This document shows positions 10,770 to 63,736 of a DNA stretch of 64,000 bases, in pieces (the first letter of the stretch is position 1; each line of letters begins with the position of its first letter). The DNA comes from Candidatus Magasanikiibacteriota bacterium. GTDB lineage: Bacteria; Patescibacteriota; Patescibacteriia; Magasanikbacterales; GWA2-37-8. The notes beneath the pieces are model-generated. The model saw only the letters and a list, made by a program, of their open reading frames with translations. It searched no databases and was not told the DNA's origin. The stretch is from contig JBAYIZ010000006.1 of the NCBI GenBank assembly GCA_041665405.1, forward strand, positions 407-64,406, read 5' to 3'. Position numbers and translations under genes: made by a program.

Positions 10770-11006
10770 ACTAATTATATTTAAGCCAATACTACGCTAT
10801 TTTGCACAAAAAATCAAGACAAACAAAAAACTTCCTATAAGAAGAAGTTTTTTCTATTCTCATGTCGTTAACAACAACAGGAAAATGGATGCCTGCTTTT
10901 TTGTACCGTGAGCGCAGGCGAATCTCACATATTTTCCTTGCGGCGACTAGCCACGCATTAATCACATGCGCAACTTATCAAGCCGAATTGTGTTGGTACG
11001 GCGCGA

Positions 11007-11420: not shown

Positions 11421-11571
11421 TGCTGACGAAGATGTTAGCTCTCTAGTTGGCGCGGGATGACACATCCACGCCCTTGCGACAAGCAAGCGGCAGCCCAGCT
11501 ACCTCTACTTTTTCCTTACCAAAAGAAAAACTAGCCGTAGCTTGGCCAAAATATATTTCAAAGAACGTGTA

Positions 11572-13715: not shown

Positions 13716-13823
13716 AAAAACATAAATACCAACAATAAAACAAAAGGACTTCACTGAGGTCTTTTTTTATTCTAGTTTTCACATTTTTGTGGTATAATAT
13801 ATTCGTAATTAATTTATAATCAT

Positions 13824-14198
13824 GTGGCTGAAATTAAAAAACACATTTTGATTGTGGAGGATGAAAAACCGATGGCCAGAGCGCTCGAATTAAAGCTAAA
13901 TAAGTCCGGATATAATGCTATTGCTGTCTTTGATGGAGAGCAGGCATTGAATGCGCTCAAAAAAGAAAAGTTTGATTTGGTTTTGCTTGATTTAATTATT
14001 CCAAAAATTGACGGGTTCGGTGTTTTAGAAAAATTAAAAGACAATAATAACAAAACACCGGTAATTGTTTCTTCAAATCTTGGTCAGGAGGACGATATTA
14101 CTCGTGCCAAAGGACTTGGCGCCAAAGGATATTATGTAAAATCAAACACTTCTATCGCCGAAGTCATAGTACAAATCAAAAAAATATTAAACGCGTAA
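13824..14198 (+). CDS. single-domain response regulator (CheY/PilH-like receiver)
   Basis: GTG start. Motifs ILIVEDE...DLVLLDLIIP...K are typical of REC domains. It lies directly upstream of pilB. Confidence 0.85.
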   Translation: MAEIKKHILIVEDEKPMARALELKLNKSGYNAIAVFDGEQALNALKKEKFDLVLLDLIIPKIDGFGVLEKLKDNNNKTPVIVSSNLGQEDDITRAKGLGAKGYYVKSNTSIAEVIVQIKKILNA

Positions 14199-14210
14199 AC
14201 AACAAAAAAT

Positions 14211-15863: not shown

Positions 15864-15872
15864 AATACGACC

Positions 15873-17336: not shown

Positions 17337-17760
17337 AGGTTTCACTCTGCTTGAAGTGATGCTGGTGCTCGCTTTTTTTGCCTTGCTCACTAGTATGTCG
17401 GTCCCGATTATAAATTCTTTTCAGGCGGAAAATAGTGTGAATTTAACGACAGCAACGATCACCCAGTCTATTCACCGTGCTATTTTACTATCACAAGGAT
17501 TAATGTTCGATTCAGCTTGGGGGGTGAATTTAACCACTGGAAAAATTACTATTTTCAAAGGCACTTCTTTTGCGGCACGCGATATTTCGTTTGATGAATA
17601 TTATGAAACGCCTGCCAATATTACTATCGCCGGATTAACTGAGATTACTTTTGCTCCGCTCACTGGGCAGCCACAAAACATTGGTACCATCACCATTACT
17701 GCTCCAGACAACGATCCAAGAGAAATAAATATCAACGCCCGGGGAATGGTCGACTACTAA
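17260..17760 (+). CDS. pseudopilin with a prepilin-type N-terminal methylation motif (start uncertain)
   Basis: Motif KG|FTLLEVMLVLAFFALL is present. The only in-frame start upstream is ATG 17260. That gives a 26-aa leader and a 77-nt overlap with pilC. Confidence 0.65.
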   Translation: MVGITSYYQTAKSVGSANATPSSCRKGFTLLEVMLVLAFFALLTSMSVPIINSFQAENSVNLTTATITQSIHRAILLSQGLMFDSAWGVNLTTGKITIFKGTSFAARDISFDEYYETPANITIAGLTEITFAPLTGQPQNIGTITITAPDNDPREININARGMVDY

Positions 17761-17763
17761 TTT

Positions 17764-18234
17764 ATGCAAATATTAAAACAACAAAATAACCGTGGATTTT
17801 CTTTAATCGAAGTTATTCTAGCTAGCTCGGTTTTTGTTTTGTTGGGATTTATGTTGGTGGGTGGAATTGTATATGGCCAAGAAAGCTCGCTCAAAGGAGC
17901 TTTGCGATCCCGAGCGGCCATGTTGGCTGAGGAAGGGCTCGAGGCAGTGCGCAGTATTCGCAACCAAAATTTTTCTGATTTGAACGTTGGTACATTTGGT
18001 CTTTCTACTTCTACTGGACAATGGTCTCTGGTTGTAGCGGCGGAATATTCAGATAATTTTTTACGTGAAATCACTATCACAGACATAGATGTTCACCAAA
18101 AAAAAATTATTTCCAAAGTAATTTGGCTATCAGAAAATAATCTAGAAAATTCTGTTTCATTAACAACTTTTTTGACCGATTGGTCGTTTGTCACTCCTGA
18201 AAATTTGGATTCTGGTGTTTGTTCTACTTCATAA
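17764..18234 (+). CDS. pseudopilin (prepilin-type N-terminal cleavage/methylation domain)
   Basis: MQILKQQNNRG|FSLIEVILASSVFVLL. Confidence 0.8.
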   Translation: MQILKQQNNRGFSLIEVILASSVFVLLGFMLVGGIVYGQESSLKGALRSRAAMLAEEGLEAVRSIRNQNFSDLNVGTFGLSTSTGQWSLVVAAEYSDNFLREITITDIDVHQKKIISKVIWLSENNLENSVSLTTFLTDWSFVTPENLDSGVCSTS

Positions 18235-18236
18235 AT

Positions 18237-18731
18237 ATGAAAAATATTTACAATAAAAAATCTGGTTTTACACTTATCGAAGTTCTGCTATATGTGGGCA
18301 TTACTTCGTTTATGTTGTTAACTATAAACATTTTTATTGCCACTGTTTTACAATCACGGATAAAAAACCAAACTGTTTTGGTAGTTGAAAACAGCGGTGT
18401 TGCTATAATGCAAACTATCATACAGACATTGAGAAATGCGACACAAATAAATATTTCAAATCCACAAACAATTTCCGCCACTATGCCAGACGGCCAACAA
18501 ATAGTTTTTGGCCTAGAAAATCAAGTAATAAATTCAACTCAAAGTGGCACCATTTATCCACTAATACCAAGCGATGTTTCCGCCACCTCGCTACAGTTTA
18601 CTAATCTTGCACCCGCCGAAAAACCCGCTTCAATACAAATAATTTTTAATCTTGAGAACCTTAGTCCCGAAGGCAGAAACGAAACTACTTACTCACAAAC
18701 TTTTTATGATACTGCCACATTACGAAAATAA
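18237..18731 (+). CDS. pseudopilin (prepilin-type N-terminal cleavage/methylation domain)
   Basis: An internal ATG at 18237 gives MKNIYNKKSG|FTLIEVLLYVGITSFML. Confidence 0.8.
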   Translation: MKNIYNKKSGFTLIEVLLYVGITSFMLLTINIFIATVLQSRIKNQTVLVVENSGVAIMQTIIQTLRNATQINISNPQTISATMPDGQQIVFGLENQVINSTQSGTIYPLIPSDVSATSLQFTNLAPAEKPASIQIIFNLENLSPEGRNETTYSQTFYDTATLRK

Positions 18732-19125
18732 TCCAACCGAAAAAAACGGCTTTGTAATATTACTGAGCGTGCTTATCATGGGCTCGGTTGGTTTGGCTGT
18801 GGCATTGTATTTATTATCTGCCGGCCTTACTTCCTCTCAAAACGGCTCAGTTTTAGAATTATCTAATCAGGCGAAAGCTCTCTCGAATGCATGTGCAGAA
18901 ATTGGTTTAGCAAAAATCGCCAACTGTACATCTACTGTTGGAACTTTTGAGACAATCATCGATGAAAGTAAATGTTCATATTCTATAATCCAAACCGGTG
19001 ACAATGGCCGAACTTTGACCAGCCAAGCGACTCAAAATGATTTAACTAGAAAAATTAAGATTGAAGTTGGACAAGTCAGCCCGATAATAACTATTAATTC
19101 ATGGCAAGAAGTCGCTGGTTTTTAA
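18706..19125 (+). CDS. PilX/GspK-like minor pilin candidate (hydrophobic N-terminus, no G|FxxxE site)
   Basis: N-terminus NGFVILLSVLIMGSVGLAVALYLL. It sits within the pilin gene run. The start is uncertain (18652 or 18706). Confidence 0.5.
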   Translation: MILPHYENNPTEKNGFVILLSVLIMGSVGLAVALYLLSAGLTSSQNGSVLELSNQAKALSNACAEIGLAKIANCTSTVGTFETIIDESKCSYSIIQTGDNGRTLTSQATQNDLTRKIKIEVGQVSPIITINSWQEVAGF

Positions 19126-19175
19126 AATAAATACAAACTCTCCAAATTATGATATAATTTGTATGAGAAAATTTT

Positions 19176-20888
19176 ATGAAAAATAAGTTTGGTTTTACAT
19201 TGTTAGAAATTTTATTGGTTGTAGCTACTATGAGTGTGCTGGCAGGTATTGTGATTGTCGCTGTTAATCCCAGCAGACAGCTTGGAGCCGCCCGCAACGC
19301 TACACGCCAAGCGGATATGGGTTCAATTTTGGGTGCGCTTTATCAATATTCACTTGATCATGATAATTTCTTCCCTACCTCTACTGACAACACTTTGAGA
19401 ATGTTGGGCACGAACACGGCTGGATGCGCGATAGATTGTAGTGGGGCGTCCGACCAGGGAGTAGGAGAAACTCCTGCTGTTACCATCACTGACCAGACTC
19501 AAGCAGATTTTCTTCTTGGACCAAAGGCCTCTACATACTATGATTCAACTGGGGGTTATCTAAAACTATCTGCCAATGCTATTTCTGGCACATACACATC
19601 CAATATAAAAAATTCAAATGAATCTTTGGCGATTTGGAATACTCTAGGATGGACAACCAATCGCCCTATTCAAAAAGAACTACCAAATAATGGCCAAACT
19701 GAAACTGGATATCCATCTGGCAACGCCAACATGTCTGACAATGTTTTATTACTACATTTCAACGAACCAAGCGGTGCGGCTAGCTTCACTGATAGCTCAG
19801 GTAATGGTAACGATGCAAGTTGTGGTGGAGTTTGCCCAAACACTATTAACAATGGACTATTTAATAATTCCATAAATTTTTCTGACACCGCAGATGATTA
19901 TTTAGTTGTTGCCGATAGTGATAGTTTAGATCTTACTAATAAGGCGACAATTGAATTTTGGATAAAACCTAGTAAATTAACAATACCTGTTGTTAATGGT
20001 AATCAGTATGCCATAATACTTTATAAAGGCGCTCTTTATGCAAACAGGTCTCTTAATTTTGATAAAATAGCTTTTTGGTTAACAAGTTTTGGACAACATT
20101 ATCTGCGTATATATGTTGGCAATCCTGCGGGAGGGACAAAAATTTTCGACATTAAATATATATCTCCAACCAAGTGGAATCATGTAGTATTTACTTTTGA
20201 TAATGGTACAGCAAAAGCTTATGTTAATGGCATAAAGGGACCTTCCAATTTGGTCGGCACACCAGTTCCTGAGGAAAATAATTTTGGTTTTCCAGCAATG
20301 CAAGCAAATAACCATAATTTATACATAGCTGGAATAATAAGTGATAGATTAGATGCGGCTCTCGATGATGTTGCGATGTATAAACGAGCATTAACTCAAA
20401 CAGAAATTACGGATCATTATATTCGTGGTGCCGCCAGATTAAAATTCCAAACACGATTCTGCCAAGACGAAATTTGTTCCTCCAACCCTGGTTTTATCGG
20501 CCCAGATGGTACATCCAATAGTTATTTTTCTAATTCGCTTAATCCCGCTACACTTAGCGGAATGAATGGACAATATTTTCAATATAAAGCAACCTTGGAA
20601 AGCGATAAAGCTGGAGTTTCCCCAGAATTAAAGACTGTTTCTGCGTCCTACAAAATAGGCAGTGCTGAACCACAAGTAATAGGCACTTTTAGCTCTTCCT
20701 CCACGGCCGAATCCTGTTTAGATCTTTCGCCAGAATTGGTCAGCGACTATTTAAGCGCCATTCCGTTTGATCCAAAATTTGGTAGTCCAGCCAAAACTTA
20801 TTATGCAGTCCAAAAAGGCGCTGGCGGGAGAATGATGATGCAGGCTTGTGGATCGGAAAACGGAGAGAGTATAATAGTGTCACGCTAA
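19176..20888 (+). CDS. large pilin with a LamG/concanavalin-A-like lectin domain (candidate tip adhesin)
   Basis: N-terminus MKNKFG|FTLLEILLVVATMSVLAGIVIVAVNP. The central region is LamG-like (LDLTNKATIEFWIKP...WNHVVFTFDNGTAKAYVNG...LDDVAMYKRALTQTEI). Confidence 0.75.
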   Translation: MKNKFGFTLLEILLVVATMSVLAGIVIVAVNPSRQLGAARNATRQADMGSILGALYQYSLDHDNFFPTSTDNTLRMLGTNTAGCAIDCSGASDQGVGETPAVTITDQTQADFLLGPKASTYYDSTGGYLKLSANAISGTYTSNIKNSNESLAIWNTLGWTTNRPIQKELPNNGQTETGYPSGNANMSDNVLLLHFNEPSGAASFTDSSGNGNDASCGGVCPNTINNGLFNNSINFSDTADDYLVVADSDSLDLTNKATIEFWIKPSKLTIPVVNGNQYAIILYKGALYANRSLNFDKIAFWLTSFGQHYLRIYVGNPAGGTKIFDIKYISPTKWNHVVFTFDNGTAKAYVNGIKGPSNLVGTPVPEENNFGFPAMQANNHNLYIAGIISDRLDAALDDVAMYKRALTQTEITDHYIRGAARLKFQTRFCQDEICSSNPGFIGPDGTSNSYFSNSLNPATLSGMNGQYFQYKATLESDKAGVSPELKTVSASYKIGSAEPQVIGTFSSSSTAESCLDLSPELVSDYLSAIPFDPKFGSPAKTYYAVQKGAGGRMMMQACGSENGESIIVSR

Positions 20889-20920
20889 TAATTCAATTTA
20901 TAAATTAATAATTTTTATAT

Positions 20921-21367
20921 ATGCAAAATCAAAGAGGTTTTACGCTGTTGGAAATTTTGTTGGTGGTAGCGGCGATTGCCATCTTGGCAGGTATCGTCAT
21001 TGTGGCCATCAATCCAGCAAAACAATTGGCAGACACACGCAATGCGCAACGACGAGTGGATGTTAATACTATATTAAACGCCATTTACCAATATGCAATA
21101 GACAATAGAGGAAATATGCCTCCTGACATCACCACTACAAAAACTGAAATTTGTAAAAGTCAAAATGGTAGTGCGTGTGCAGACGCCGCCTTGGTTGATT
21201 TGTCTCCTGTAACTGTCAACGAGGTTTATATTACAGCCATCCCAAGCGATCCTAGCATTGCCACCACAAATGGCACCGGATATTTTATTTCTAAAACTGC
21301 CAATAATCGCATTACTGTTGAAGCAACCGGCGAACCAGCCAGTCAAATTATCTCCGTAACTAGATAA
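20921..21367 (+). CDS. pilA: type IV major pilin (PilA-like)
   Basis: MQNQRG|FTLLEILLVVAAIAILAGIVIVAINP, 148 aa, with a C-terminal Cys pair. Confidence 0.85.
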   Translation: MQNQRGFTLLEILLVVAAIAILAGIVIVAINPAKQLADTRNAQRRVDVNTILNAIYQYAIDNRGNMPPDITTTKTEICKSQNGSACADAALVDLSPVTVNEVYITAIPSDPSIATTNGTGYFISKTANNRITVEATGEPASQIISVTR

Positions 21368-21369
21368 TT

Positions 21370-22734
21370 ATGCCCTCTCCGGCACAAAAAAGAATTGACG
21401 GCGACATCCACATCACCCTATTAATATTAGGGTGGGTGTTTTTGTTAATCAATTTGATGCTGGCCTATTCATTCAAAAATATTTTAGACAGACAATTATC
21501 AATGTTGGTCGGTGGCGCCTTTTTGATGCAGGGACTTTTTCTTTTATTAACTGCCACATACTTTTCTCACACCATAAAAGCGGCCAAAAAAGTTACTGAA
21601 GAATTGGAATTGGCAAAAATAAAAATAGAAACCGAAAAAGCCAAAGATGAGGCACTATTAAACAGCATTGGCGATGGTGTGGTAGCGACTGATAATACTG
21701 GGGCAATTATTTTTATTAACAAAGTCGCCGAAGAAATGTTGTCTTGGACGGGTGCAGTAATAGGAGAAAAATTGGGTGAGATTTCCTTGTTGACTAACGC
21801 CAATGGAGAACATATTTCAATAGAAAAACACCCACTACACCTGAGTTTAGAAACAAAAAAACAAGTAGTTACCAAGGACTATCGATTTGTGCGTGAAGGC
21901 AAAGTGGATCTGGCAGTATACATCAGTGCCACACCAGTAATTCTCAAAGACGAGGTTGTCGGGGCTATCGAAGTTTTCCGTGATATTACCAAAGAAAAAG
22001 AAATAGACCAAGCCAAAAGTGAATTCGTCTCGTTGGCCTCACACCAATTACGCACTCCCCTATCTACTGTAAATTGGTATACAGAAATGTTGTTGGCCGG
22101 TGATGCAGGAAAAATGAATGCTGAACAAAAAAAATATTTGCGCGAAATCTATGATAGTAACAATCGCATGATTGATTTGGTAAACACGTTGCTAAATGTA
22201 TCGCGTATTGAAATGGGGACCTTCAAAGTAAAACCAGAACCAATAAAAATCAGCGAAGTAATAGAATCGCTTTTAAGTGAATTGTCCGTACAAACTTCCC
22301 AACATAAATTAAAAGTGGAAAAAAAGTTTGGCAAGGATGTTCCAACTATCAATGCCGACCCTAGCTTGATTAGAATTATTATACAAAATCTTTTATCCAA
22401 TGCGGTGAAATATACACCCGATGGTGGAAAAATATCCGCCGAAGTGATGCGTCGTCCACACGATGTCATGATTGAAATAAAAGATAGCGGTTATGGTATT
22501 CCAAAAAACCAGCAAGATAAAATTTTTAATAAAATGTTTCGCGCCGAAAATGTGAAGGATAAAATTACGGATGGCAACGGGCTAGGGCTTTATTCCACTA
22601 AAGCAATAGTGGAACAATCCGGTGGAAAAATTTGGTTTGAATCAGAAGAAAACAAAGGCACTTCGTTTTTTGTTACTATTCCGCTAACAGATCCAAAGAA
22701 AAAAATCGGCAAGAAAAATTTATCGGCCTTTTAA
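21370..22734 (+). CDS. membrane sensor histidine kinase with a PAS domain
   Basis: Two TM segments, a PAS-like region, H-box SEFVSLASHQLRTPL, and N/G boxes (NLLSNAVKYT, DSGYGI, GLGLY). Confidence 0.9.
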   Translation: MPSPAQKRIDGDIHITLLILGWVFLLINLMLAYSFKNILDRQLSMLVGGAFLMQGLFLLLTATYFSHTIKAAKKVTEELELAKIKIETEKAKDEALLNSIGDGVVATDNTGAIIFINKVAEEMLSWTGAVIGEKLGEISLLTNANGEHISIEKHPLHLSLETKKQVVTKDYRFVREGKVDLAVYISATPVILKDEVVGAIEVFRDITKEKEIDQAKSEFVSLASHQLRTPLSTVNWYTEMLLAGDAGKMNAEQKKYLREIYDSNNRMIDLVNTLLNVSRIEMGTFKVKPEPIKISEVIESLLSELSVQTSQHKLKVEKKFGKDVPTINADPSLIRIIIQNLLSNAVKYTPDGGKISAEVMRRPHDVMIEIKDSGYGIPKNQQDKIFNKMFRAENVKDKITDGNGLGLYSTKAIVEQSGGKIWFESEENKGTSFFVTIPLTDPKKKIGKKNLSAF

Positions 22735-22772
22735 TTTATTAAAAACTCCTACGGAGCTCGACCCTAGAAATT

Positions 22773-23159
22773 ATGAAAAATACCAAAAAAATTTTAATAG
22801 TGGAAGACGAAAAACCAATCGTCGAAGCTCTCACTATTAAACTTACTAAAGAAGGCTACGAGCCACATTTTGCCACAACTGGAGAAGCTGGGTTGGCTTT
22901 GACAAAAGATCTTCACCCAGACTTAATTTTGTTAGATTTCATTCTGCCAGATATGGACGGCTTGTCATTCCTCAAAACCCTGCGGCTGGATAAATGGGGC
23001 AAATCTGCTCAAGTGCTAATATTGACCAACCTCAGTGATGGCAAAATAGCCGACGAAGTGGCTGAATATGGGGTTTTTGACTATCTGATCAAAGCCGACT
23101 GGCGCCTAGACGATGTGGTGAAGAAGGTGAAAGAAAAAGTAGGCAGAGGAAACAAATAA
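22773..23159 (+). CDS. single-domain response regulator
   Basis: REC motifs ILIVEDE, DLILLDFILPDMDG, and K near the C-terminus. There is no output domain. Confidence 0.88.
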   Translation: MKNTKKILIVEDEKPIVEALTIKLTKEGYEPHFATTGEAGLALTKDLHPDLILLDFILPDMDGLSFLKTLRLDKWGKSAQVLILTNLSDGKIADEVAEYGVFDYLIKADWRLDDVVKKVKEKVGRGNK

Positions 23160-23348
23160 CTCCACAAACAAAAACATCCCGACTAAATCGAGATGTTTTA
23201 TTTTTAAAGCGTTTATATCACTCGCACAATCTGAAAACAAATTTTATTTTCAAATTGCGCGGCGAGTGACATCTACCGCGTCTGCCCCACCGCCCGCTTG
23301 TAGCGAGTGGGGCTACGATGGCTAGTCTCTACAAATTAGCCCTTCCAT

Positions 23349-23822
23349 CTAGAAGGTGCCCGCCCCCAAGGCGAGTTGGACCTCCCATCCGAAGGAGTTC
23401 TTCTCCACGACGTCCTGTTGCCAGCCGACAGGGGCTTTCAGGAAAACGCGGGCACGCCACAGCTTCATACTGACCATCGGACCAGCCCCGTACAACAGCC
23501 CGTCGTTGCCCTTCTGTCCAGAAAGGACCCCGCCGAAGTTGAACGTGAGCCCATCAACGATCACGTCATAGGTGACGCCGTAGGCCATGCCGTAGCCCGA
23601 TACTTGGGTCGGAACCCAGAACTGGGCGAAGTGGGTCGTGTGACCATCCGGCTGGACCAAGTAGAGGCCCATGCCGATGTCGGTGCCGTCCTCAAACCCG
23701 GCGTGTTGCACGAACAGGCCGGCCCCACCAGTCTCCGGACCAGGACCCTCAGCCAGGGCGACTGAAGGAACTGCGAAAAGGACGACGCTCACGATGACGA
23801 AAAACCACGCGATGTGCTTCAT
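23349..23822 (-). CDS. secreted small beta-barrel-like (OMP-like) protein encoded in G+C-rich islet 2
   Basis: ATG 23822 is preceded by GGAG at 7 nt. Signal peptide is MKHIAWFFVIVSVVLFAVPSVALA|EG. It has Gly/aromatic-rich alternating strands and a C-terminal ...LALGAGTF. Third codon positions are G/C-rich. The track start at 23957 lies in the AT-rich leader and is probably spurious. Confidence 0.6.
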   Translation of the reverse strand: MKHIAWFFVIVSVVLFAVPSVALAEGPGPETGGAGLFVQHAGFEDGTDIGMGLYLVQPDGHTTHFAQFWVPTQVSGYGMAYGVTYDVIVDGLTFNFGGVLSGQKGNDGLLYGAGPMVSMKLWRARVFLKAPVGWQQDVVEKNSFGWEVQLALGAGTF

Positions 23823-23994
23823 GGATTTACTCCGAAAACTAGAGTTCATCGGTACCCAGCCGACACACCACGCGACAATCATTGTCGAGAGGTAAGGGTG
23901 ATTATTTATTCCTATATACATTAGAAATACATAATTTCCTTTACCTCTTTGAGACATTATTTATCCATTATAATTTAAAAAGAACTAACTGAAC

Positions 23995-24023
23995 AGTATC
24001 ACACAAAACAATCAAATTGTCAA
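23995..24023 (-). promoter_or_regulatory. sigma70-type promoter reading into G+C-rich islet 2
   Basis: Minus strand reads TTGACAatttgattgttttgtgtGATACT (17-nt spacer). It sits back-to-back with the rpsL promoter. Confidence 0.55.
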
Positions 24024-24031
24024 CATCTCTA

Positions 24032-24060
24032 TTGACAAACCCGCCTAAATATTATATTAT
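24032..24060 (+). promoter_or_regulatory. sigma70-type promoter of the rpsL-rpsG-fusA operon
   Basis: TTGACA-17 nt-TATTAT, about 150 nt upstream of rpsL. Confidence 0.65.
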
Positions 24061-25146: not shown

Positions 25147-25154
25147 AAATTCCG

Positions 25155-25240
25155 CAAAGGGTAACTTTTTCGCTTTTTTTGCCCGCGAGGGCAAAAGGAT
25201 GAGCCTCGGCTCATAACCCGCTCAAAAGTAACCCTTTGCT
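25155..25240 (+). ncRNA. candidate structured RNA / terminator-embedded repeat, copy 1
   Basis: Outer stem is GCAAAGGGT.../...ACCCTTTGC. It encloses the conserved core TTTTTCGCTTTTTTTGCCCGCGAGGGCAAAAGGATGAGCCTCGGCTCATAACCCGCTCAAAAG. Related copies are at 38645 and 48340. Confidence 0.5.
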
Positions 25241-38644: not shown

Positions 38645-38739
38645 AAAAAACTTTTATTTTATTTCGCTTTTTTTGCCCGCGAGGGCAAAAGGATGAAGCC
38701 GCGGCTTCATAACCCGCTCAATTAAAATAAAAGTTTTTT
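38645..38739 (+). ncRNA. candidate structured RNA / terminator-embedded repeat, copy 2
   Basis: A 17-bp outer stem (AAAAAACTTTTATTTTA/TAAAATAAAAGTTTTTT) encloses the core TTTCGCTTTTTTTGCCCGCGAGGGCAAAAGGATGAAGCCGCGGCTTCATAACCCGCTCAA. Confidence 0.5.
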
Positions 38740-39431: not shown

Positions 39432-40280
39432 CTATTTGTTATTCCTGATGTCTTTTAAAATTTGCAAATCTTCGCGGACTTTGTCGTGTTCGGTTTCTAA
39501 GTAGTAATTTATTTTTTGAAGTCGTTTGTTTGTCAACAGAGCCTCAAAACCCGTCTTGCCAATTAGGCCTTCGCCTAAATGTTCATGACGATCTTTGTGT
39601 CCGCCTAGCTCTATTTTGCTGTCGTTGCAGTGAGACATTTTTAGCTTGTCTATACCGATTAGTTGATCAAATTTTTTGAATGTTTCTTCAACTGCTTTTG
39701 GGGTGCGAATGTCATATCCTGAGGCAAAACCATGTTGGGTATCATAGCAGACACCGATATCATATTTTTTTAATTTTTTATGATTTATAATTTCGGCAAT
39801 TTCTTCAAAAGTGTCACCAATAATTGCGCCGGCACCAGCAGAAATTTCTATTAAAAATTGGGCGCTGCCTTTGTAGCCATTTAGCATTTTTTCTAAACCG
39901 TCTACGAGCTGTGTCAGTCCTTCTTTTTCGCCAAGGTCTTTGTAACTACCTAGATGAGCCATAACATACGCCGCGCCAAGTAGAGAAGCGCGTTCGAGCT
40001 CTTCACGAACAACAGTGATTGACCCATGTTTGATTCGTGGGTTGGCACTGGCGAAGTTTATAAAATATGGGGCGTGAACCACCCATTCTTTTTGGTTATA
40101 TTCCTTGCACAAACCTCTGAATTCGTCGGCAAGTTTCTTGTTTAACGGTGCGACAAAACCACCCTGTGGAGAACGGGTAAATATTTGAAAAACTTCACAG
40201 CCAAGAGCGGCCGAGTTTTTTGGGGCGTTGGTTAGTCCGCCAGCGATAGAGACGTGGGCGCCAAAATACATAGACAACAA
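39432..40280 (-). CDS. nfo: deoxyribonuclease IV (AP endonuclease family 2)
   Basis: TIM-barrel Nfo motifs: HAPYFINFAS, HLGSY, and H..D/E metal ligands through the C-terminus. Confidence 0.88.
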   Translation of the reverse strand: MLSMYFGAHVSIAGGLTNAPKNSAALGCEVFQIFTRSPQGGFVAPLNKKLADEFRGLCKEYNQKEWVVHAPYFINFASANPRIKHGSITVVREELERASLLGAAYVMAHLGSYKDLGEKEGLTQLVDGLEKMLNGYKGSAQFLIEISAGAGAIIGDTFEEIAEIINHKKLKKYDIGVCYDTQHGFASGYDIRTPKAVEETFKKFDQLIGIDKLKMSHCNDSKIELGGHKDRHEHLGEGLIGKTGFEALLTNKRLQKINYYLETEHDKVREDLQILKDIRNNK

Positions 40281-40394
40281 GTTAAAACAGTGTTAAAATT
40301 AATCTACTTGTTTGTGAAACATGAAGTCAAACAGATATTGATATAATAACACAATATTCGAAATAATAAAAAATTAATTATTAATAATGAACAT

Positions 40395-40841
40395 ATGGAA
40401 GACACCTGCAAAGTGTGTGGTGGAAGGCATAAAACCGGCGAGTGTACCGAAAAATCGTCCAAAAAAGAAGGAAACAAAAAACGCGAACTATTTAAAGACG
40501 CCATCTGCAAAAAAATAGAAGAAAAGCTTGCCAAAATAAACTTTGGAAGTTATGATGCCGCCGAAAATTATGGTGGTGGTGATAGCGTAGACCTGTACGA
40601 TGAAGCCGACAACATAGAAGAGGTGTTAGACGAAGCAGAAGAGACTATTGATTTAGCATACAAAGAAGACTGGTCAACAGACAAGCTAATAGCAGAATTA
40701 AACAAAATAATAGTAAAGATAGACACCGAGCCCCAGGAAAAACACCTTAGCTTTGTTTCATATGGTATGGAAGAAAAACCGCTTTCGTATTATGTAGACA
40801 TAAGTGAAGAAGTGGAAAGTCACTACGGGAAACGCGGCTAG
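40395..40841 (+). CDS. hypothetical acidic protein with an N-terminal CxxC...H....C knuckle-like motif
   Basis: The motif is CKVCGGRHKTGEC. No family recognised. Confidence 0.4.
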   Translation: MEDTCKVCGGRHKTGECTEKSSKKEGNKKRELFKDAICKKIEEKLAKINFGSYDAAENYGGGDSVDLYDEADNIEEVLDEAEETIDLAYKEDWSTDKLIAELNKIIVKIDTEPQEKHLSFVSYGMEEKPLSYYVDISEEVESHYGKRG

Positions 40842-40845
40842 TTTT

Positions 40846-42840
40846 ATGAATCTTTTTTCAGGAATTAAAATTTTAGATCTCACGCGCGTTTTTAGCGGGC
40901 CTTTTGCGACCAGGCATTTTTCTGATTTTGGGGCAGAGGTGATCAAGATAGAGCCATCACAAGGAGATGACAGCCGAAAATTTCCGCCACACATTGGCAA
41001 TTGGAGCGGATATTTTGAGATTTTAAATAGGAACAAAAAATCTATTATATTGGATTTAAAAAACGACAAAGACTTGGAGAAGTTTTATAAGCTTTGCAAA
41101 AACTGCGATGTAGTGGTTGAAAATTTTTCGCCCGATGTTGCCAAAAGATTGAAAATCGATTATCAAACAATCGCAAAAATAAACTCGAACGTTATTTACG
41201 CCTCTATTTCTGGTGTCAGCGAAAATATTGTAAAAAAATATTATGATGTTATCGCGCAGGCTGAGTCTGGGTTGATATCGCTCAACGGAGAATGTGAGGA
41301 CATGAAAAATGCAACATCAGTCGTAGATGCATTTTCTGGCATGAAGTTGGCCTTTGCCATTTCATCGGCCTTGTATGGTAGAGAAAAAACAAAAAGAGGC
41401 TGTAAAATTAATGTTTCTATGAAAGGGACGGCTTTTGATCTGCTCGAACAAAACCTCATCAACACTTCAGTAACAAATATAAATCCAAAAAAAGTAGGAA
41501 ATATGGATAGTGCCATTGCACCATTTGGCGTGTTCAAAACAAAGAACGGGGCGGTAGTGGTTGCGATCGGGAACAATGATCAATGGGAAAGATTTGAAGC
41601 ATTTTTGTTAAAGCACGGACCCAAAAGAATTTTTAAACACTTTGCAACAAATATTCTTAGACTTAAAAATATTCAAAATTTAAAAACAGAAATAGAGCAG
41701 GTATTTTCTCTATATTTATCAAAAAATATAATAAAAATACTTGAAGAAAAAAATATACCATGCGGACAAGTAAAAACCATGCGCGACGTAATTAATGATG
41801 AGGAAAACTACGAGGAAAATTTGTTGGAAAAAATAAAGCACCCTATAGTGGGAGATATTGTGGTTCCAACTGGAGGTATATTTTTCTCAAAATTTAAAAA
41901 AGAAAAATATCGAATAGCCCCAGCTCTAAACATGGAATATAAGGAATATAAACAGGAACACACGAGCCAAGTGGTTGAATTACTTAACAAGTGTTTTCCT
42001 AATAAAAAAGTTACTGAAAAATCTTTCTTGTGGAAACACTTTGATAAATTTTTTAATAATAAATCAGTCGGCATAGTCGCACTCGAAGAGGGTGTGGTAT
42101 GTGCGTTTGTGTGTTTTACTCCAATTGCTATTGTAAATGGAGAAAATATTTATAATCATTTTTATTCTTGCGCGATTCAAGCCACTCACCCAGATTTCAG
42201 GCGCCAGGGGATTGTTTCCAAACTTACATTGATGGTTGAAGACAAACTTGGCCCCGCCGTTGAATATATAGGATTTTCCAATAGCGAAGGGGTTAAAATC
42301 GATAAATTTTCAAAAAAAATTAACTACGAAATTTTAGGACAAATGGCCACTAAATATGTTGTTTCGTTGCCATATTTTTCAAATTTTCATATAAAACAAA
42401 TAGACGAAATTAATTTCCAACCGAAATCTCAACACAACACAAGTGGGTTTCTTATATTGAAGAATAATGAATACTTAAAATGGAGATACAAAAATAACCC
42501 CAAAAATATATACGAATATTTTGAAATATCTAAAGAAGACGTTGTCGCCGGTTATATTATTTGTAAAAACAGCAAGTTGAAATACGAAGTTAACGAAGTG
42601 GCATTGTTTGAAAACAAAGAAAAGACATACAAAGAGGCTATTAAAGCATTTTCAAAATTTTCAATTAACAGGGGAAAGTTTTTTGTTTCTTATTCATATT
42701 TACAAAATAAATTTTGGAAGCAATGTTTTCCATTACTATCGTTTACAAAAAAAATCAACATTTATTTCACTATAAAGACCGCGGACACCAACCTAGAAGA
42801 TGTTGATAAGTGGAGAATTCAAGGCGGAGATGTCCAATAA
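40846..42840 (+). CDS. family III CoA-transferase (CaiB/BaiF-like) fused to a GNAT/FemAB-like acyltransferase domain
   Basis: An internal ATG at 40846 gives MNLFSGIKILDLTRVFSGPFATRHFSDFGAEVIKIEP, the CoA_transf_3 N-terminus. The C-terminal half has a GNAT-like FRRQGIVSKL motif. Confidence 0.65.
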   Translation: MNLFSGIKILDLTRVFSGPFATRHFSDFGAEVIKIEPSQGDDSRKFPPHIGNWSGYFEILNRNKKSIILDLKNDKDLEKFYKLCKNCDVVVENFSPDVAKRLKIDYQTIAKINSNVIYASISGVSENIVKKYYDVIAQAESGLISLNGECEDMKNATSVVDAFSGMKLAFAISSALYGREKTKRGCKINVSMKGTAFDLLEQNLINTSVTNINPKKVGNMDSAIAPFGVFKTKNGAVVVAIGNNDQWERFEAFLLKHGPKRIFKHFATNILRLKNIQNLKTEIEQVFSLYLSKNIIKILEEKNIPCGQVKTMRDVINDEENYEENLLEKIKHPIVGDIVVPTGGIFFSKFKKEKYRIAPALNMEYKEYKQEHTSQVVELLNKCFPNKKVTEKSFLWKHFDKFFNNKSVGIVALEEGVVCAFVCFTPIAIVNGENIYNHFYSCAIQATHPDFRRQGIVSKLTLMVEDKLGPAVEYIGFSNSEGVKIDKFSKKINYEILGQMATKYVVSLPYFSNFHIKQIDEINFQPKSQHNTSGFLILKNNEYLKWRYKNNPKNIYEYFEISKEDVVAGYIICKNSKLKYEVNEVALFENKEKTYKEAIKAFSKFSINRGKFFVSYSYLQNKFWKQCFPLLSFTKKINIYFTIKTADTNLEDVDKWRIQGGDVQ

Positions 42841-42876
42841 AAAAACCACCGACTAAGCGGTGGTTTTTTGATATTA

Positions 42877-44157
42877 TTATTTCAATATTTTTTCTTTCAG
42901 CCAGGCGACCACTTTTTTGTTTTGAATAGTGGCGGCTAGAGTGTCTAGGACTTCTTGGCGCTTGAGAGCCTCTTCTACTTTTGGATCGTTCTTGTATGTT
43001 ACTTTGATAAGTTCGATTTCTTTGTTGAGTTCTTCTTTTTCTACTTTGATATTGTTTTCTTTGGCGATCTGACGAGAAATAATGGCGGCCTTCACGCGAG
43101 TGAGAGCACGCTCGGCAAAATCATTGGCAATTTCTTCCTCAGTCTTTTTTACATCCTTCAAATATTTTTCAAATTCTATTCCTTGTTCCTGCAAACTGTT
43201 TTTTAATTCATAAAACATTTTTTGTTTTTCTGAAGTTATCAAAACATCTGGCACCTCACTAAACTCACTGGCCAAAATTACTTTTTCCAAAAGTTCCGCT
43301 TCGATGCGTTGGTCTTCTTTGCTCTCCGCTTCTTGTTTTAGGTTGGTCATCAAAATGTCTTTCAAAGCCTCAACGCTTTTTTGTCCAAGCTTGGCGGCAA
43401 GCTCGTCGTTGATTTCTGGGTATTCGATTGAATATACTTCGTTTACCTTGATATTGAAATCAACATTTTTTCCAGCCAAATGTTTTTGGTAATGTTCGTC
43501 TGGAAATTTTAGAGAAAATTCTTTAACTTCATCTTTTTTCAAACCAACCAATTGTTCAGCAAATCCTGGAATATAGTGTGGTTCGTTCAAATATACTTGA
43601 TGTTTTGGAGCTTGACCACCCTCAACACCCACTTTGTCGATAGACATGTTCATCGCTACTTCTACCTTATCTTCTTTGGTAGCGGAGCCTTCCTTGATCA
43701 CTTCTATCGCTTGCATTTTGCGCAAGTTGTCCAACACGTCATTAATTTCTTTGTCTCCAACCACCACTTCTTTTTTCTTGGCATTAATTTTTGTTAAGTC
43801 AGCCAATTTTACAGAAGGCAAAAGTGCGGCCACAGCTTTGAAAACAAAATCATTGTTTGGAGCCATTTTTTCAATAGTAATTTCTGGCATACCAACAGTT
43901 TCTAACTTTTCTGCCTTTACTGCTTCAAAAAAATTCTTTTCAACAATGGACTGTAACGCTTCTTCCAAAATTTTAATCTCACCAAGAGATTGTTTCACAA
44001 TATCATAAGGAGCTTTGCCTGGACGGAAACCGTGAATGGCGGCGCGCTGGGAAAGACGACCGGCGGCATCCTCCATGTTTTTTTGGTAATCGGTAGGAGT
44101 GACAGTGATCACCAGTTCTACTTGTGATTTTGGTAGTTGTTTTAAAACGTGAGCCAT
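42877..44157 (-). CDS. tig: trigger factor
   Basis: The internal start MAHVLKQLPKSQVELVITV... and GFRPGKAP (ribosome-binding signature) are present. The track start at 44202 is probably an extension. Confidence 0.9.
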   Translation of the reverse strand: MAHVLKQLPKSQVELVITVTPTDYQKNMEDAAGRLSQRAAIHGFRPGKAPYDIVKQSLGEIKILEEALQSIVEKNFFEAVKAEKLETVGMPEITIEKMAPNNDFVFKAVAALLPSVKLADLTKINAKKKEVVVGDKEINDVLDNLRKMQAIEVIKEGSATKEDKVEVAMNMSIDKVGVEGGQAPKHQVYLNEPHYIPGFAEQLVGLKKDEVKEFSLKFPDEHYQKHLAGKNVDFNIKVNEVYSIEYPEINDELAAKLGQKSVEALKDILMTNLKQEAESKEDQRIEAELLEKVILASEFSEVPDVLITSEKQKMFYELKNSLQEQGIEFEKYLKDVKKTEEEIANDFAERALTRVKAAIISRQIAKENNIKVEKEELNKEIELIKVTYKNDPKVEEALKRQEVLDTLAATIQNKKVVAWLKEKILK

Positions 44158-44271
44158 ATATGTATGATTAAAAATACTTCGCAATATTATCTTAAAACAC
44201 AAAAAAAGTCAATTTTATGGCTGTGGTATTGCTTTTTTGAGGATGTTGGTGTATATTTTTTAAATCCACCC

Positions 44272-44529
44272 GTGGCCAGGTCGTGTTATATAGACACAGC
44301 CTCGGCGACTATAGCGAAAGAGGGGAAACCATGGCGCGAGCCAAACCGGCAACGGACACGTGTTGAGGTACATGTTCGATTCCAGTTCAACCTCAGGCCG
44401 CAACAACGGGCTGAGGAGGCCACGCAGAAGGCCAAGAAGTGGCAGAGGGACAACCCGGGCTGGGGCTGTGATCCCAACCCCACGACGATCGGCAACGGCT
44501 ACGCTACCTTCAGGGCTCGTCGCACCTGA
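44272..44529 (+). pseudogene. G+C-rich islet 3 ORF with unresolved start (possibly frameshifted or a gene fragment)
   Basis: G/C-rich third positions mark this frame from about 44380 to TGA 44527-29 (...QQRAEEATQKAKKWQRDNPGWGCDPNPTTIGNGYATFRARRT). The only SD+ATG (GAGGGG-N6-ATG 44331) is in another frame and stops after 11 codons. The in-frame candidates are GTG 44272, or the AT-rich extension at 44149. Confidence 0.3.
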
Positions 44530-44660
44530 CGACGATCAACCTCTTCGACGCACACCCCCAGTCGAGCACAAGTTGCTCCTGGGGGCGGGGCTTAGATGAA
44601 ATTATCCTTCCTGTCCTAAGTAGAAAAAATATTTTCTTTTTAGGACAAGGATAATTTCTT

Positions 44661-44707: not shown

Positions 44708-44731
44708 GATTCCCGCTTTCGCGGGAATGAC
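44708..44731. repeat. ATTCCCG palindromic mini-element, intergenic
   Basis: GATTCCCGCtttcGCGGGAATGAC, about 20 nt from the hppA stop. Confidence 0.75.
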
Positions 44732-44752
44732 AACACACGAAGAATGGTGTTT

Positions 44753-48190: not shown

Positions 48191-48241
48191 TAAAAACTTT
48201 GACTTTTTATTTAAAAGTGGTATTATTTGAATACAAAATTT

Positions 48242-48312
48242 GGTACCGTTGCCAAGCAGTAAGGCAGAGCTCTGCAAAAGCTCTATGCGTGGGTGCAATT
48301 CCCACCGGTACC
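48242..48312 (+). tRNA. tRNA-Cys (anticodon GCA)
   Basis: Acceptor stem GGTACCG/CGGTACC, anticodon stem GAGCT/AGCTC with loop CU-GCA-AA, T-arm GTGGG-TGCAATT-CCCAC. A TTGACT-16-TATTAT promoter lies upstream. Confidence 0.85.
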
Positions 48313-48339
48313 TCGAAATAGCAGTAGTGCTGTAGAACA

Positions 48340-48437
48340 AACATCCCAGACAATGACTTTTTCGCTTTTTTCGACCGCGAGGTCGAAAGGATGAGCCTCG
48401 GCTCATAACCCGCTCAAAAGTAATTGTCTGGGATGTT
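48340..48437 (+). ncRNA. candidate structured RNA / terminator-embedded repeat, copy 3
   Basis: A 15-bp perfect outer stem (AACATCCCAGACAAT/ATTGTCTGGGATGTT) is followed by a T7 run. It encloses the core TTTTTCGCTTTTTTCGACCGCGAGGTCGAAAGGATGAGCCTCGGCTCATAACCCGCTCAAAAG. Confidence 0.55.
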
Positions 48438-48453
48438 TTTTTGTACCATAAAA

Positions 48454-48482
48454 TTGACTTTGTGTTTTTTATCAAGTAAAAT
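48454..48482 (+). promoter_or_regulatory. sigma70-type promoter reading into G+C-rich islet 4
   Basis: TTGACT-17 nt-TAAAAT. The composition switches to G+C-rich about 6 nt downstream. Confidence 0.6.
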
Positions 48483-48576
48483 ATTTTTGTGTCCCAAACG
48501 ACCGACGGTTCGCCGTTCGGTCACAACGACCACTTGCACCGCTCATCGGTGGTGGTCTCGAAAAGGAGAGAGAGCC

Positions 48577-48798
48577 ATGCGTGTGCTTCCCTCGATCCTG
48601 AACCAGAGCCGGAGACGGAGCGACAATTCCGCCGATTGCGGGCAGGTCGCGAGCTCCGAGGCCGACTTCATCCACAGGCAACTGCTCGAGCATGGCTTCT
48701 GCTCGGACATGAAGGAGGGCGCCGTCGGCACCGCCAACATGGTCGGCATCGTCTGTTCGACCGCGGCCGGCCGCGGAGCAGTAGTCCTCCTGGTGTAG
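48577..48798 (+). CDS. 73-aa protein of unknown function encoded in G+C-rich islet 4
   Basis: AAGGAG sits 8 nt before the ATG. By my codon-by-codon read, G/C at codon position 3 is very high in this frame only. Sequence: MRVLPSILNQSRRRSDNSADCGQVASSEADFIHRQLLEHGFCSDMKEGAVGTANMVGIVCSTAAGRGAVVLLV. Confidence 0.55.
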   Translation: MRVLPSILNQSRRRSDNSADCGQVASSEADFIHRQLLEHGFCSDMKEGAVGTANMVGIVCSTAAGRGAVVLLV

Positions 48799-48827
48799 GG
48801 CTCAGCTTCGTACGAGACAACCAGTGC

Positions 48828-48881
48828 GGCCGGACCGGGAGCTCCTTCGGGGGTTTCTGGTCCGGCCGTCGTTTCCTTTTT
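48828..48881 (+). terminator. GC-rich hairpin terminator after the islet 4 ORF
   Basis: GGCCGGACC...GGTCCGGCC (9 bp), followed by gtcgTTTCCTTTTTATT. Confidence 0.55.
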
Positions 48882-48962
48882 ATTATATTTAATACTCAAA
48901 GCGGGTATTTTTTTATTGCTCAAAAAAGGGTTTGCGTGTAAAATAAGAACGAATAATATTTT

Positions 48963-61162: not shown

Positions 61163-61308
61163 GATAACTTCTTGAGCTCAACAAGATGTTGGAGTGAATG
61201 AGCGGTCACTACCAGCCGCGTGACTTTTTGTTTTACCGGTAGTCACAAACCGGATGATCCCAGACCCCTCATCAGCGGACCATTGAATTGTCCTGAAACT
61301 TTGCACCT

Positions 61309-61707
61309 CTACGCCTGTTCGCGACAGGGCAGGCATTCGTAGCCCACCCAAAGGCCGTTGGCAAAGGTGAAGTCGAAGTCCCAGCGGTTGTCACCACCGT
61401 ACCAGCAGAGGCTGGCAGTGTATTTGAATCCATTGGGGGCGAGAAGAGTGGTGCCAGTGAGCACGATCTTCTTCTTACGCATTTTCATCGGAATCTGGTC
61501 TTGGTGGTCAAGCAGTTGCTGGCCGTCACGCACTCCAAGGACGCCATTCCGACGACGTGCGCGTTCGCGCAATTCGGAGCCCTTGATGCATTCCTCGCCA
61601 CGCTTGAGGCACGACTCGATCCGGAGCTTGTTGATGTGAAGATCTGCAATTGGATCACAGTCTTCCACAACCTTAAACTCCACCCTGTTCCAAACGAATG
61701 TATTCAC
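61309..61707 (-). CDS. 132-aa cytoplasmic protein of unknown function encoded in G+C-rich islet 5
   Basis: The GTG start is preceded by AAGGAGG at 6 nt. The frame is open across the whole G+C-rich segment. No signal peptide and no family recognised. Confidence 0.6.
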   Translation of the reverse strand: MNTFVWNRVEFKVVEDCDPIADLHINKLRIESCLKRGEECIKGSELRERARRRNGVLGVRDGQQLLDHQDQIPMKMRKKKIVLTGTTLLAPNGFKYTASLCWYGGDNRWDFDFTFANGLWVGYECLPCREQA

Positions 61708-63075: not shown

Positions 63076-63168
63076 ATTACTTCTTGAACCAAAATGATTT
63101 AGTTCGAAAAGTAGCTGCGCGTCTTTTTGACCGGGACGCGCAACCGGGTGAGAGGGTGGAACCGGACG

Positions 63169-63660
63169 TCACAGGAATGCGATTCCCAGTGACGGCTGGA
63201 ACAGCAACGAGTAATCGCCGCCATCCAGGGTCTTCGCCAGTCCAAATGCCATGGACAGCGACAGACCGTTTCCGATTCCGTAGGCCAGGCCGGTGCCCAG
63301 ACCAACCAAGTCGGAAGACGGCTTGCCGCCGTAACCGACATTGCGCTGGTAGAGCACGCTGGCCTGGGTGGACCAACGATCAGTCAGTCCCAGCGACACA
63401 CCTGCAGAGAGGCGTGGGCTGGGCTTGCAACTGTCGTTGGGGGTGGCCAGCCCGATTCCGCCCGCGATGGACACCTTGTTGGAGACCTTCTCCGACAGCG
63501 AGATGTCGTAGCGGGTGGAGGCCGAGGCGGGGGTGAGCCCGTCCTTCAGGAGGACGACGTAGCCCTCCCGGATGTTGAAGACCGGGGTCAGGGCGCTGGC
63601 CGAAGCCGAGACACCGCTCAGAACCACGGCCACCAGGACGATCAGGGTGGAGATCTTCAT
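63169..63660 (-). CDS. secreted small beta-barrel-like (OMP-like) protein encoded in G+C-rich islet 6
   Basis: GAGGTG lies 4 nt before the ATG. Signal peptide is MKISTLIVLVAVVLSGVSASASA|L. The protein has Gly-rich alternating strands and a C-terminal ...QPSLGIAFL. Confidence 0.6.
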   Translation of the reverse strand: MKISTLIVLVAVVLSGVSASASALTPVFNIREGYVVLLKDGLTPASASTRYDISLSEKVSNKVSIAGGIGLATPNDSCKPSPRLSAGVSLGLTDRWSTQASVLYQRNVGYGGKPSSDLVGLGTGLAYGIGNGLSLSMAFGLAKTLDGGDYSLLFQPSLGIAFL

Positions 63661-63736
63661 GGGACACCTCTGCAGACCAGAAGGCCTGCCATCTGCATTA
63701 GTCAGTCAGGTTGCATTTGCGAACCCATACTGCTTT

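Follow-up and report, generated by a model that had tools for sequence, protein, structure and literature searches.

REPs are conserved palindromes of 20–40 nt that bear a GTAG/CGTC tag, are mobilised by the RAYT transposase and occur in hundreds of copies. The Correia elements of Neisseria are MITEs that act as terminators; like MITEs in general, they end in conserved inverted repeats and are flanked by a target-site duplication. The hairpins of chloroplast 3' UTRs undergo small hairpin-loop inversions (flip-flop). The genomes of CPR bacteria are tiny and tightly packed, and to our knowledge almost no non-coding elements have been described in them. According to published reports, REP, BIME and REPIN elements have been proposed to be terminators or 3'-UTR stabilisers (PMC3116915, PMC3733652, bioRxiv 10.64898/2026.03.23.713779), and repeats of a similar appearance are mitochondrial GC clusters, double-hairpin elements and repetitive hairpin-forming elements (PMC4478555, PMC2800124, PMC7218506).

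We analysed a window of 64 kb (the whole stretch of DNA under study) and describe here a hairpin element that it shares with other Magasanikbacteria. Like the REP, BIME and REPIN elements of proteobacteria, as those are described, the element is an extragenic multi-copy hairpin found at the 3' ends of genes and inside operons in either orientation, shows compensatory changes and persists at orthologous sites. Unlike a REP, it has as its conserved part a 62–68-nt three-way junction atop a long, sequence-variable stem, and it occurs in about 20 copies per genome. Neither the GTAG/CGTC tag nor a conserved palindrome of 20–40 nt was found in the alignment of the family, and no RAYT was identified among the clustered flanking proteins. 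With Correia elements and other MITEs it shares a small size, a non-coding intergenic position, long hairpins upon transcription and a putative ability to end or process transcripts; unlike in them, neither terminal inverted repeats nor a target-site duplication is evident (flanks 72–96% identical). Like mitochondrial GC clusters and double-hairpin elements, it is a GC-rich two-hairpin unit that lies in AT-rich intergenic regions of a compact genome and shows presence/absence polymorphism. This is a likeness by description, and homology is not expected; the mitochondrial units are organellar and, as described, have no long closing stem with A/T tracts. As in chloroplast flip-flop, a segment between inverted-repeat arms reorients among relatives (at five orthologous sites here); the analogy concerns the flips only, and conserved arms around a flipped core could not be shown at the flipped sites. 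Thus, what sets the family apart from REP/BIME/REPIN elements, MITEs and GC clusters is the conservation of a branched apex instead of palindrome arms or termini. In Rfam 15, no covariance model matched the element of the window at the gathering threshold, and the long form of the family was also without a match; at E ≤ 10 only weak miRNA-hairpin matches appeared, on the stem. Since the literature search also returned no description of it, we regard the family as undescribed.

The tRNA-Cys locus and the fold of the element

The original prediction placed a structured core within the apparent terminator of tRNA-Cys (Table 1). On rereading the sequence, we found the outer stem to be a perfect 15-bp helix with fully complementary arms that enclose 68 nt, exactly as had been claimed. 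The distances needed correction: the stem starts 25 nt, not 28 nt, past the tRNA end called by ARAGORN, and the -35 hexamer TTGACT of the next promoter-like site starts 16 nt, not 17 nt, past the stem. The T-tract consists of seven residues, as described, but does not directly follow the stem, since its first two T lie inside P1 and five lie beyond.

Pairing extends inside the 15 bp. A G.A mismatch (48355/48422) is followed by the pairing of ACUUUU with AAAAGU (48416–48421). Going up from P1, the order is the G.A mismatch, the inner stem, the UC/UC internal loop, two G-C pairs and the junction with P3 and P4. The core thus folds into a three-way junction whose two hairpins, P3 and P4, have GCGA and CUCG loops, respectively, and AACCC is the strand leading from the junction back to the stem. 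Possibly, the CC of this strand pairs with GG 48389–48390 and leaves AA as a bulge; in the orthologue L083, a GGG is matched by CCCC at the proposed pairing. The RNA fold of 48335–48450 has an energy of -52.8 kcal/mol against -23.1 ± 3.2 in shuffled sequences (z = -9.3), and none of 200 shuffles reached its stability. ARAGORN called only tRNA-Ser and tRNA-Cys in the window, which does not point to a tRNA-like or tmRNA identity of the element.

Table 1. Features of the tRNA-Cys locus and copies of the element in the window
Feature	Position	Strand	Remarks
Promoter-like site of tRNA-Cys: TTGACT, 16-nt spacer, TATTAT, TG before -10	48199–48226	+	kept in orthologues without upstream element
tRNA-Cys (GCA), no encoded CCA	48242–48314	+	ARAGORN; Rfam tRNA 57 bits
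P1 outer stem, 5' arm AACATCCCAGACAAT	48340–48354	+	paired in 72 of 72 family members
Conserved core (apex), 68 nt	48355–48422	+	inner stem, C/UC internal loop, two G-C pairs, P3, P4, AACCC junction
Inner stem, 5' strand ACUUUU	48356–48361	+	pairs with 48416–48421; alignment columns 14/76 and 15/75 covary (U-A, C-G, A-U)
Conserved UC/UC internal loop	48362–48363 / 48414–48415	+	directly below P2 top pairs
P2 top pairs G48364-C48413, C48365-G48412	48364–48365	+	single-sequence fold and alignment
P3 hairpin UUUCGACC-GCGA-GGUCGAAA	48369–48388	+	GNRA-type loop 48377–48380
P4 hairpin AUGAGC-CUCG-GCUCAU	48391–48406	+	fold and alignment
Junction AACCC	48407–48411	+	extra module of the long form enters between AA and CCC
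P1 outer stem, 3' arm ATTGTCTGGGATGTT	48423–48437	+	complement of the 5' arm, fold
T7 tract, U-tract of putative terminator	48436–48442	+	first two T paired in P1
Next promoter-like site: TTGACT, 17-nt spacer, TAAAAT	48454–48482	+	ahead of GC-rich islet
Copy 1, between rpsG (S7) and fusA (EF-G)	about 25154–25240	+	sense orientation; covariance model, 105 bits
Copy 2, between rnpA and yidD	about 38648–38737	+	about 6 nt after stop codon, about 7 nt before next start; 87 bits
Copy 3, after tRNA-Cys	about 48346–48432	+	104 bits

The locus is arranged as promoter-like site, tRNA-Cys, element and next promoter-like site. A promoter scan of the locus found no promoter-like site in the interval between tRNA-Cys and the element. 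Judging by its sequence, the promoter-like site further downstream is the putative promoter of a GC-rich islet and would mark the downstream limit of the tRNA-Cys unit. Like an intrinsic (Rho-independent) terminator, the element has a stable stem (15 perfect base pairs and six inner pairs) that closes a transcription unit and runs directly into a U-tract. Unlike the loop of such terminators, which measures about 3–8 nt, its loop is a structured three-way junction of 68 nt, and copies of the element also occur without a T-run and antisense. A terminator consensus scan of the locus does not call the stem and T-tract.

We compared eight orthologous loci, the window included, that share the order H+-PPase, M23 peptidase, tRNA-Cys and polA. 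After tRNA-Cys, the window, L077, L078 and L083 have an intact element and then a T-rich run, and L080 has a degenerate element and then a T-rich run; the run is therefore present 3' of the stem in all five element-bearing orthologues. A plain hairpin with a T-run is found at this place in L079 (ATCTCCAG-gct-CTGGAGAT-T5) and in L082 (AAAACCCCCAAC-tag-TTGGGGGTTTT). In L081, a GC-rich islet directly adjoins the tRNA. The plain stem of L079 resembles the stems of the window and of L078 in their outer part. This stem likeness and the plain terminators of the orthologues indicate that a terminator is needed at this spot and is supplied by the stem of the element when the element is present. Most likely, the stem and T-run of the element are the intrinsic terminator of tRNA-Cys. 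The idea of a core lodged in a terminator loop is only partly supported. In its favour are, at tRNA-Cys, the T-run in five of five orthologues and the plain terminators of L079 and L082, and T5+ follows 85 of 143 distinct copies. It is not supported as a general rule, because the whole hairpin comes and goes, the stems share a consensus, 52 of 143 copies have no runs, many copies lie within operons and some are antisense. Alternatively, the terminator-like stem may be P1 of a stable RNA that is co-transcribed with the tRNA: as the tRNA-Cys gene encodes no CCA, a trailer of about 125 nt with extensive structure would be set free by 3' processing.

Several other features of the window were noted. 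GC-rich islets (56–62% G+C in a genome of about 36% G+C) are found at 48486–48888, 10934–11503, 23250–23825, 44263–44617, 61250–61649 and 63099–63714, and blastn detected no nucleotide similarity among them. The islet at 48486–48888, which is preceded by the promoter-like site 48454–48482, has a 20-bp GC hairpin with a T-rich tail (48826–48869); its 73-aa ORF (48577–48798) is without a counterpart in Pfam. Among the orthologous loci, L081 has a homologous islet at this place, L077 and L082 have unrelated ones, and L078, L079, L080 and L083 have none. Thus, the islets also come and go. A second, small palindromic repeat, GATTCCCGC-NNNN-GCGGGAATGACA, occurs in the window at 10174–10199, 11910–11935 and 44708–44733, and in L077, from a related genome, at about 4095–4125 and 4545–4575, just upstream of the polA start. 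Compared with the MAG loci L065 and L021, the window has extra DNA of about 10 kb (13718–24032) and about 2.6 kb (40272–42877) at otherwise syntenic positions.

A dispersed family of structured repeats in Magasanikbacteria

A covariance model run with filters off recovered three copies of the core in the window, the tRNA-Cys one included, all on the + strand. It gave no further or decayed copies: the rest of the window scored at most 22 bits, except for the reverse strands of the same three copies. Orthologues of the rnpA–yidD copy are intact in L008, L009, L021 and L027 and diverged in L070. An exact-pattern scan with one genome per species gave 74 loci in about 11 MAGs, nearly all of them Candidatus Magasanikbacteria MAGs, and a second scan with only the 5' half of the core gave 107 metagenome stretches. 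Together, groundwater metagenomes and about 11 MAGs of Magasanikbacteria (CPR) yielded about 150 distinct copies. The best-sampled MAGs hold at least 18 (JBAYGI01) and at least 17 (CAYZHG01) copies. A density of about 1 copy per 50 kb was derived from the 3 copies in the 64-kb window, and we put the genomic complement at about 20. As far as sampled, the family is restricted to Candidatus Magasanikbacteria. The MAGs CAYZHG01, CAZXEV01 and CAZHYJ01 (L006–L071) carry the element and were deposited as 'uncultured Gammaproteobacteria'; this label is doubtful, since the CAYZHG and CAZXEV loci have 66–83% nucleotide identity to the window.

Operon-internal copies are common (rpsG–fusA, rnpA–yidD, prfB–tsaC–ksgA), and one copy follows tRNA-Leu in L006. 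The stem starts 0–30 nt past stop codons, and convergent gene pairs host the element more often than divergent ones (about 17 vs 4). Among the 143 distinct copies, A5+ precedes the element on the 5' side in 63; 57 have both A5+ and T5+, and the 52 copies with neither make up 36%. Where the run is one-sided, it lies on the + strand 3' side in 28 copies and on the other side in 6.

To evaluate the structure, pair counts were taken on 72 aligned copies, with 500 shuffles and with structures slid by 1–3 columns as controls. Standard pairs occupy 87.8% of the pair cells versus 71.2% in the shuffles, and the covariation score is 0.413 versus 0.126; no shuffle matched the observed pairing or the observed covariation, and the slid structures are 36–53% paired. 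Compensatory changes exceed both controls, as in structured RNAs generally, and covariation supports every helix. The outer stem P1 has low identity among copies and differs at nearly every position, yet it stays paired, with double changes at 15 of 18 pairs. P3 is paired in 99.7% of cells. Its three inner pairs swap widely (C-G/U-A/G-C; G-C/A-U; C-G/G-C/A-U/U-A), and its loop-closing pair shows a few double changes. Copies found without constraining P4 contain a compensatory switch of this helix from AUGAGCC/GGCUCAU to AUGCGCC/GGCGCAU, and copies picked up by the 5'-half pattern alone retain the 3' junction CAUAACCCGCUCA. In the variants UUGGC/GCCAA and UUUGC/GCAAA, the internal loop is closed by Watson-Crick pairs. 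While the helices covary, the unpaired residues of the core are near-invariant, and UUCGCUU and AACCC are the conserved unpaired stretches. The hairpin loops read on the + strand are GNRA (GCGA/GUGA) and UUCG/CUUG/CUCG, closed by C-G.

The copies form subfamilies A and B, a P3-less form and a long form with an extra P5–P6 module. Class B has the signature CUCUCCUC...CAGGGAUGA, and in it GGG co-occurs with CC. The P3-less variant comes from the MAG CALBKX (labelled Clostridia), with copies at L003 1640–1960 and L043 6739–6812. In L003, a gene that resembles lysS by eye is followed by two tandem P3-less copies at a distance of 235 nt from each other, and an extra GGAUG-hairpin-CAUAACCCG module lies between them. 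In the long form, a 78-nt two-hairpin module bordered by an (A)TAA direct repeat is inserted exactly between CAUAA and CCCGC and has compensatory changes of its own. It occurs in L084 (about 2930–3140, -), L128 (9350–9560, +), L067 (150–340), L175, L112, L094, L138, L124 and L183; the L084 copy is directly upstream of a gene whose translated start looks GroEL-like by eye. L128 (long) and L011/L056 (short) represent one locus with an identical stem, so the module is a recent indel. We rejected an independent nested mobile element as the nature of the module, as it was found inside cores only in 1.33 Mb of sampled loci. In L122, L148 and L149, the two P3 arms come from different subtypes (e.g. 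CGCCC with GGGCA), which results in single A.C mismatches; such mixed arms suggest an exchange between copies inside the loop, by recombination or template switching.

In filled/empty pairs of orthologous sites, it is the entire hairpin, with both stem arms, that distinguishes the two states, at places where the genes are packed very closely; the empty sites are without any hairpin. Thus, the empty state of prfB|tsaC is TAA-T-ATG: the stop codon, 1 nt and the next ATG. Further comparisons were L048 vs L018/L124, L060 vs L066/L035, L007 vs L010, L055 vs the window at lspA|next gene, and L143 and L079 vs the window and L078 in the M23|tRNA-Cys spacer. In L079, the copy after tRNA-Cys is lost and another one lies ahead of the tRNA, and L143 also has a copy on the other side. 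Six filled/empty comparisons revealed no clear target-site duplication, with flanks only 72–96% identical. Terminator-type stems of non-orthologous copies share a loose consensus, A5-YACCGG-NNN-ATAATTACC before the core and GGTAATTAT-NNN-CCGGTR-T5 after it, which the window stem matches loosely; other subfamilies have different stems. The gain and loss of whole hairpins and the common stem consensus therefore make the complete hairpin the repeat unit.

Copies also decay, and degenerate or truncated ones are found in L080, L031, L071 and L174. Others persist at orthologous sites: rnpA–yidD in 6 genomes, rpsG–fusA in 3 confirmed ones (the window, L065, L053) and tsaC–ksgA in 4. Outside the helices, the core is near-invariant across genomes whose flanks are only 70–87% identical and whose stems have almost fully diverged. 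On sequence grounds, such a pattern resembles the effect of purifying selection on the individual loci more than that of selfish spread. No partner transposase, conserved terminal repeat or target-site duplication is evident for the element, and no transposase or recombinase gene lies beside any of about 85 flanks (proteins clustered; larger clusters housekeeping by inspection or Pfam). In one orthologous set (L010 343, L062 1266, L064 2024, L071 1362, L098, L147, L130), the hairpin stands exactly between TTTTAC(G) and TATAAT motifs. These promoter-like hexamers are thus about 110 nt apart and would be close only if the hairpin were extruded or deleted.

Several identities of the element were rejected. 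No Rfam 15 model of a known ribozyme (hammerhead, twister, twister-sister, pistol, hatchet) or of a riboswitch matched; for the hammerhead, inspection by eye also shows that GGAUGAG differs from the CUGAUGA core and that the GAAA/stem III arrangement is absent. The tandem G.A pairs and loop sequences that define a K-turn, loop E or T-loop are missing on inspection. A mini-ORF in P4 (AUG-AGC-CUC-GGC-UCA-UAA) has its frame broken by one-nucleotide loop indels in many copies. AAGGAUG is an unlikely SD- or CsrA-like single strand, as its GG is apparently paired with the CC of AACCC or with the 5' U/C run. A phage or plasmid origin does not fit the viral contigs, which had no match to the element, or the flanks, which are housekeeping genes. 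A composite transposon does not fit either: tsaC and pnp are the genes enclosed by two copies, and these copies are not consistently oriented.

Acting strand and possible functions

After collapsing orthologues, co-directional sites comprise about 23 sense and about 12 antisense copies (n = about 35), so the consistent orientation to transcription that is usual for structured RNAs was not found. In the locus L040, whose genes all share the same strand, the order is prfB – E(+) – tsaC – E(-) – ksgA. The antisense tsaC–ksgA copy is kept in four genomes, and antisense copies have covariance-model scores equal to those of sense copies. Between orthologues, the orientation flips at five sites. At rpsG–fusA, the window copy is sense, and its orthologues in L065 and L053 are antisense; a simple inversion was rejected here, because the stem arms of the window and L065 are unrelated, and a flip looks the same as an independent gain. 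Antisense copies and flips argue against a role that requires + strand transcription from neighbouring genes. Since the apex is near-invariant despite diverged flanks and rewritten stems, the constraint or homogenising process acting on it must be independent of orientation.

The + strand is pointed to by the GNRA and UUCG/CUUG/CUCG loops, by the T-run bias and by a weak sense bias. The RNAalifold consensus is also better on the + strand (-32.3 vs -27.2 on the reverse strand), while in single-sequence folds the reverse strand is the more stable one in 55 of 72 copies. The stems are almost purely Watson-Crick, and on the + strand the exceptions are 139 A.C against 43 G.U (P1 123/37, P3 7/2, P4 9/4). 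Much of the A.C excess occupies fixed subfamily-consensus positions and tracks the orientation of the element in every gene context; therefore, it is partly inherited. We rejected it as proof of minus-strand folding, because it is largely an inherited subfamily consensus. A replication-strand rule was also rejected, as opposite orientations lie 0.7 kb apart in a co-directional cluster.

From the T-run, orthologue, gain/loss and stem-consensus data, we favour, at even chances, a dispersed REP/MITE-like structured repeat that spreads as a complete hairpin and also serves as the hairpin of transcript ends. The unit is the whole hairpin of about 110–130 nt, often with an A-tract 5' and a T-tract 3', in which a long stem is capped by the conserved 62–68-nt three-way junction (P2, GCGA-loop P3, P4, UUCGCUU, AACCC). 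Such units are gained and lost at gene ends and can flip. In a + strand transcript with a T-run, the apex would fold first and draw both stem arms together, and the stem with its U-tract would then be the intrinsic terminator and the 3'-end protecting hairpin of tRNA-Cys. The conserved apex is most likely a recognition module for the propagating enzyme or for an RNA- or DNA-binding factor, and the + strand RNA is presumably the relevant form. This reading is weakened by the failure to find a target-site duplication, a conserved terminal repeat or a partner transposase. A near-invariant non-helical core and antisense copies that are equally intact fit poorly with a purely + strand RNA role, as do the excess of A.C over G.U and the more stable reverse strand. 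Besides, a loop of 68 nt is outside what is usual for an intrinsic terminator, and the consensus scan did not call one here.

It is possible, though rather unlikely, that the element is a cis-acting RNA module selected at each locus. Its apex would bind a Magasanikbacteria protein or RNase, the stem would only close the apex, and the module would mark transcript ends and operon junctions, where it could serve to protect 3' ends, direct RNase III-type processing or couple translation. This would account for the C-G-closed loops and the better consensus fold of the + strand, for invariant unpaired residues between covarying helices, and for the position of the stems just past stop codons and their persistence at orthologous sites. 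The variation is also modular, as in real RNAs: CALBKX lacks P3, and P5–P6 is optional and covarying. It would not account for the roughly one third of co-directional sites that are antisense to the sole evident transcription and equally conserved, for the different orientations of orthologues or for the near absence of G.U pairs, and at orthologous sites the element is dispensable.

An element acting at the DNA level, whose folded single strand or cruciform is recognised by a transposase, recombinase or replication/repair protein and whose RNA effects are incidental, seems quite unlikely to us. Such an element would be comparable to IS200/IS605-RAYT hairpins and integron attC sites. Conservation independent of orientation, compensation by Watson-Crick pairs with very few G.U pairs, and the gain, loss and flipping of units would agree with it, and the chimeric P3 arms of L122, L148 and L149 suggest recombination between copies. 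However, no transposase or recombinase gene was seen among the clustered proteins of about 85 flanks, and neither the GTAG/CGTC tag nor a clear target duplication was found. The opposite orientations 0.7 kb apart speak against a strict replication-strand rule, and the bias of one-sided T-runs (28 vs 6) points to transcription.

Very improbable is a trans-acting small RNA made from multiple paralogous genes and freed from tRNA or mRNA 3' trailers, with P1 as closing stem and terminator: RNase Z-type cleavage of the CCA-less tRNA-Cys would free a very stable trailer, a copy follows tRNA-Leu in L006 and 85 of 143 copies end in a T-run, but most copies are promoterless between tightly packed genes, one third of the orientable ones are antisense, 36% have no A- or T-run on either side, and no conserved single-stranded seed of a length that would suggest targets was seen.

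Meaning for Magasanikbacteria

The element is abundant for so small a genome. Its sequence is kept more strictly than that of the genes around it, although copies are gained, lost and flipped. Together with its covariance model, it can be used for annotating terminators and operon junctions in Magasanikbacteria MAGs. If the dispersed repeat that we favour is a mobile element, its conserved part is the apex of the hairpin and not the ends, which would imply a new mechanism of propagation. If the apex is a module recognised by a protein or RNase, it would reveal how Magasanikbacteria punctuate and stabilise their transcripts. We consider a bolder proposal unlikely. In it, the apex would represent a modular structured RNA of a new class (a P2–P3–P4 three-way junction with optional P5–P6) recognised by a dedicated Magasanikbacteria factor, and the hairpin would be a self-propagating 'portable terminator' or operon punctuation mark, possibly copied via the self-folding 3' end of a transcript. 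If true, a self-propagating portable terminator would account for the strict sequence conservation and the gain/loss dynamics together.
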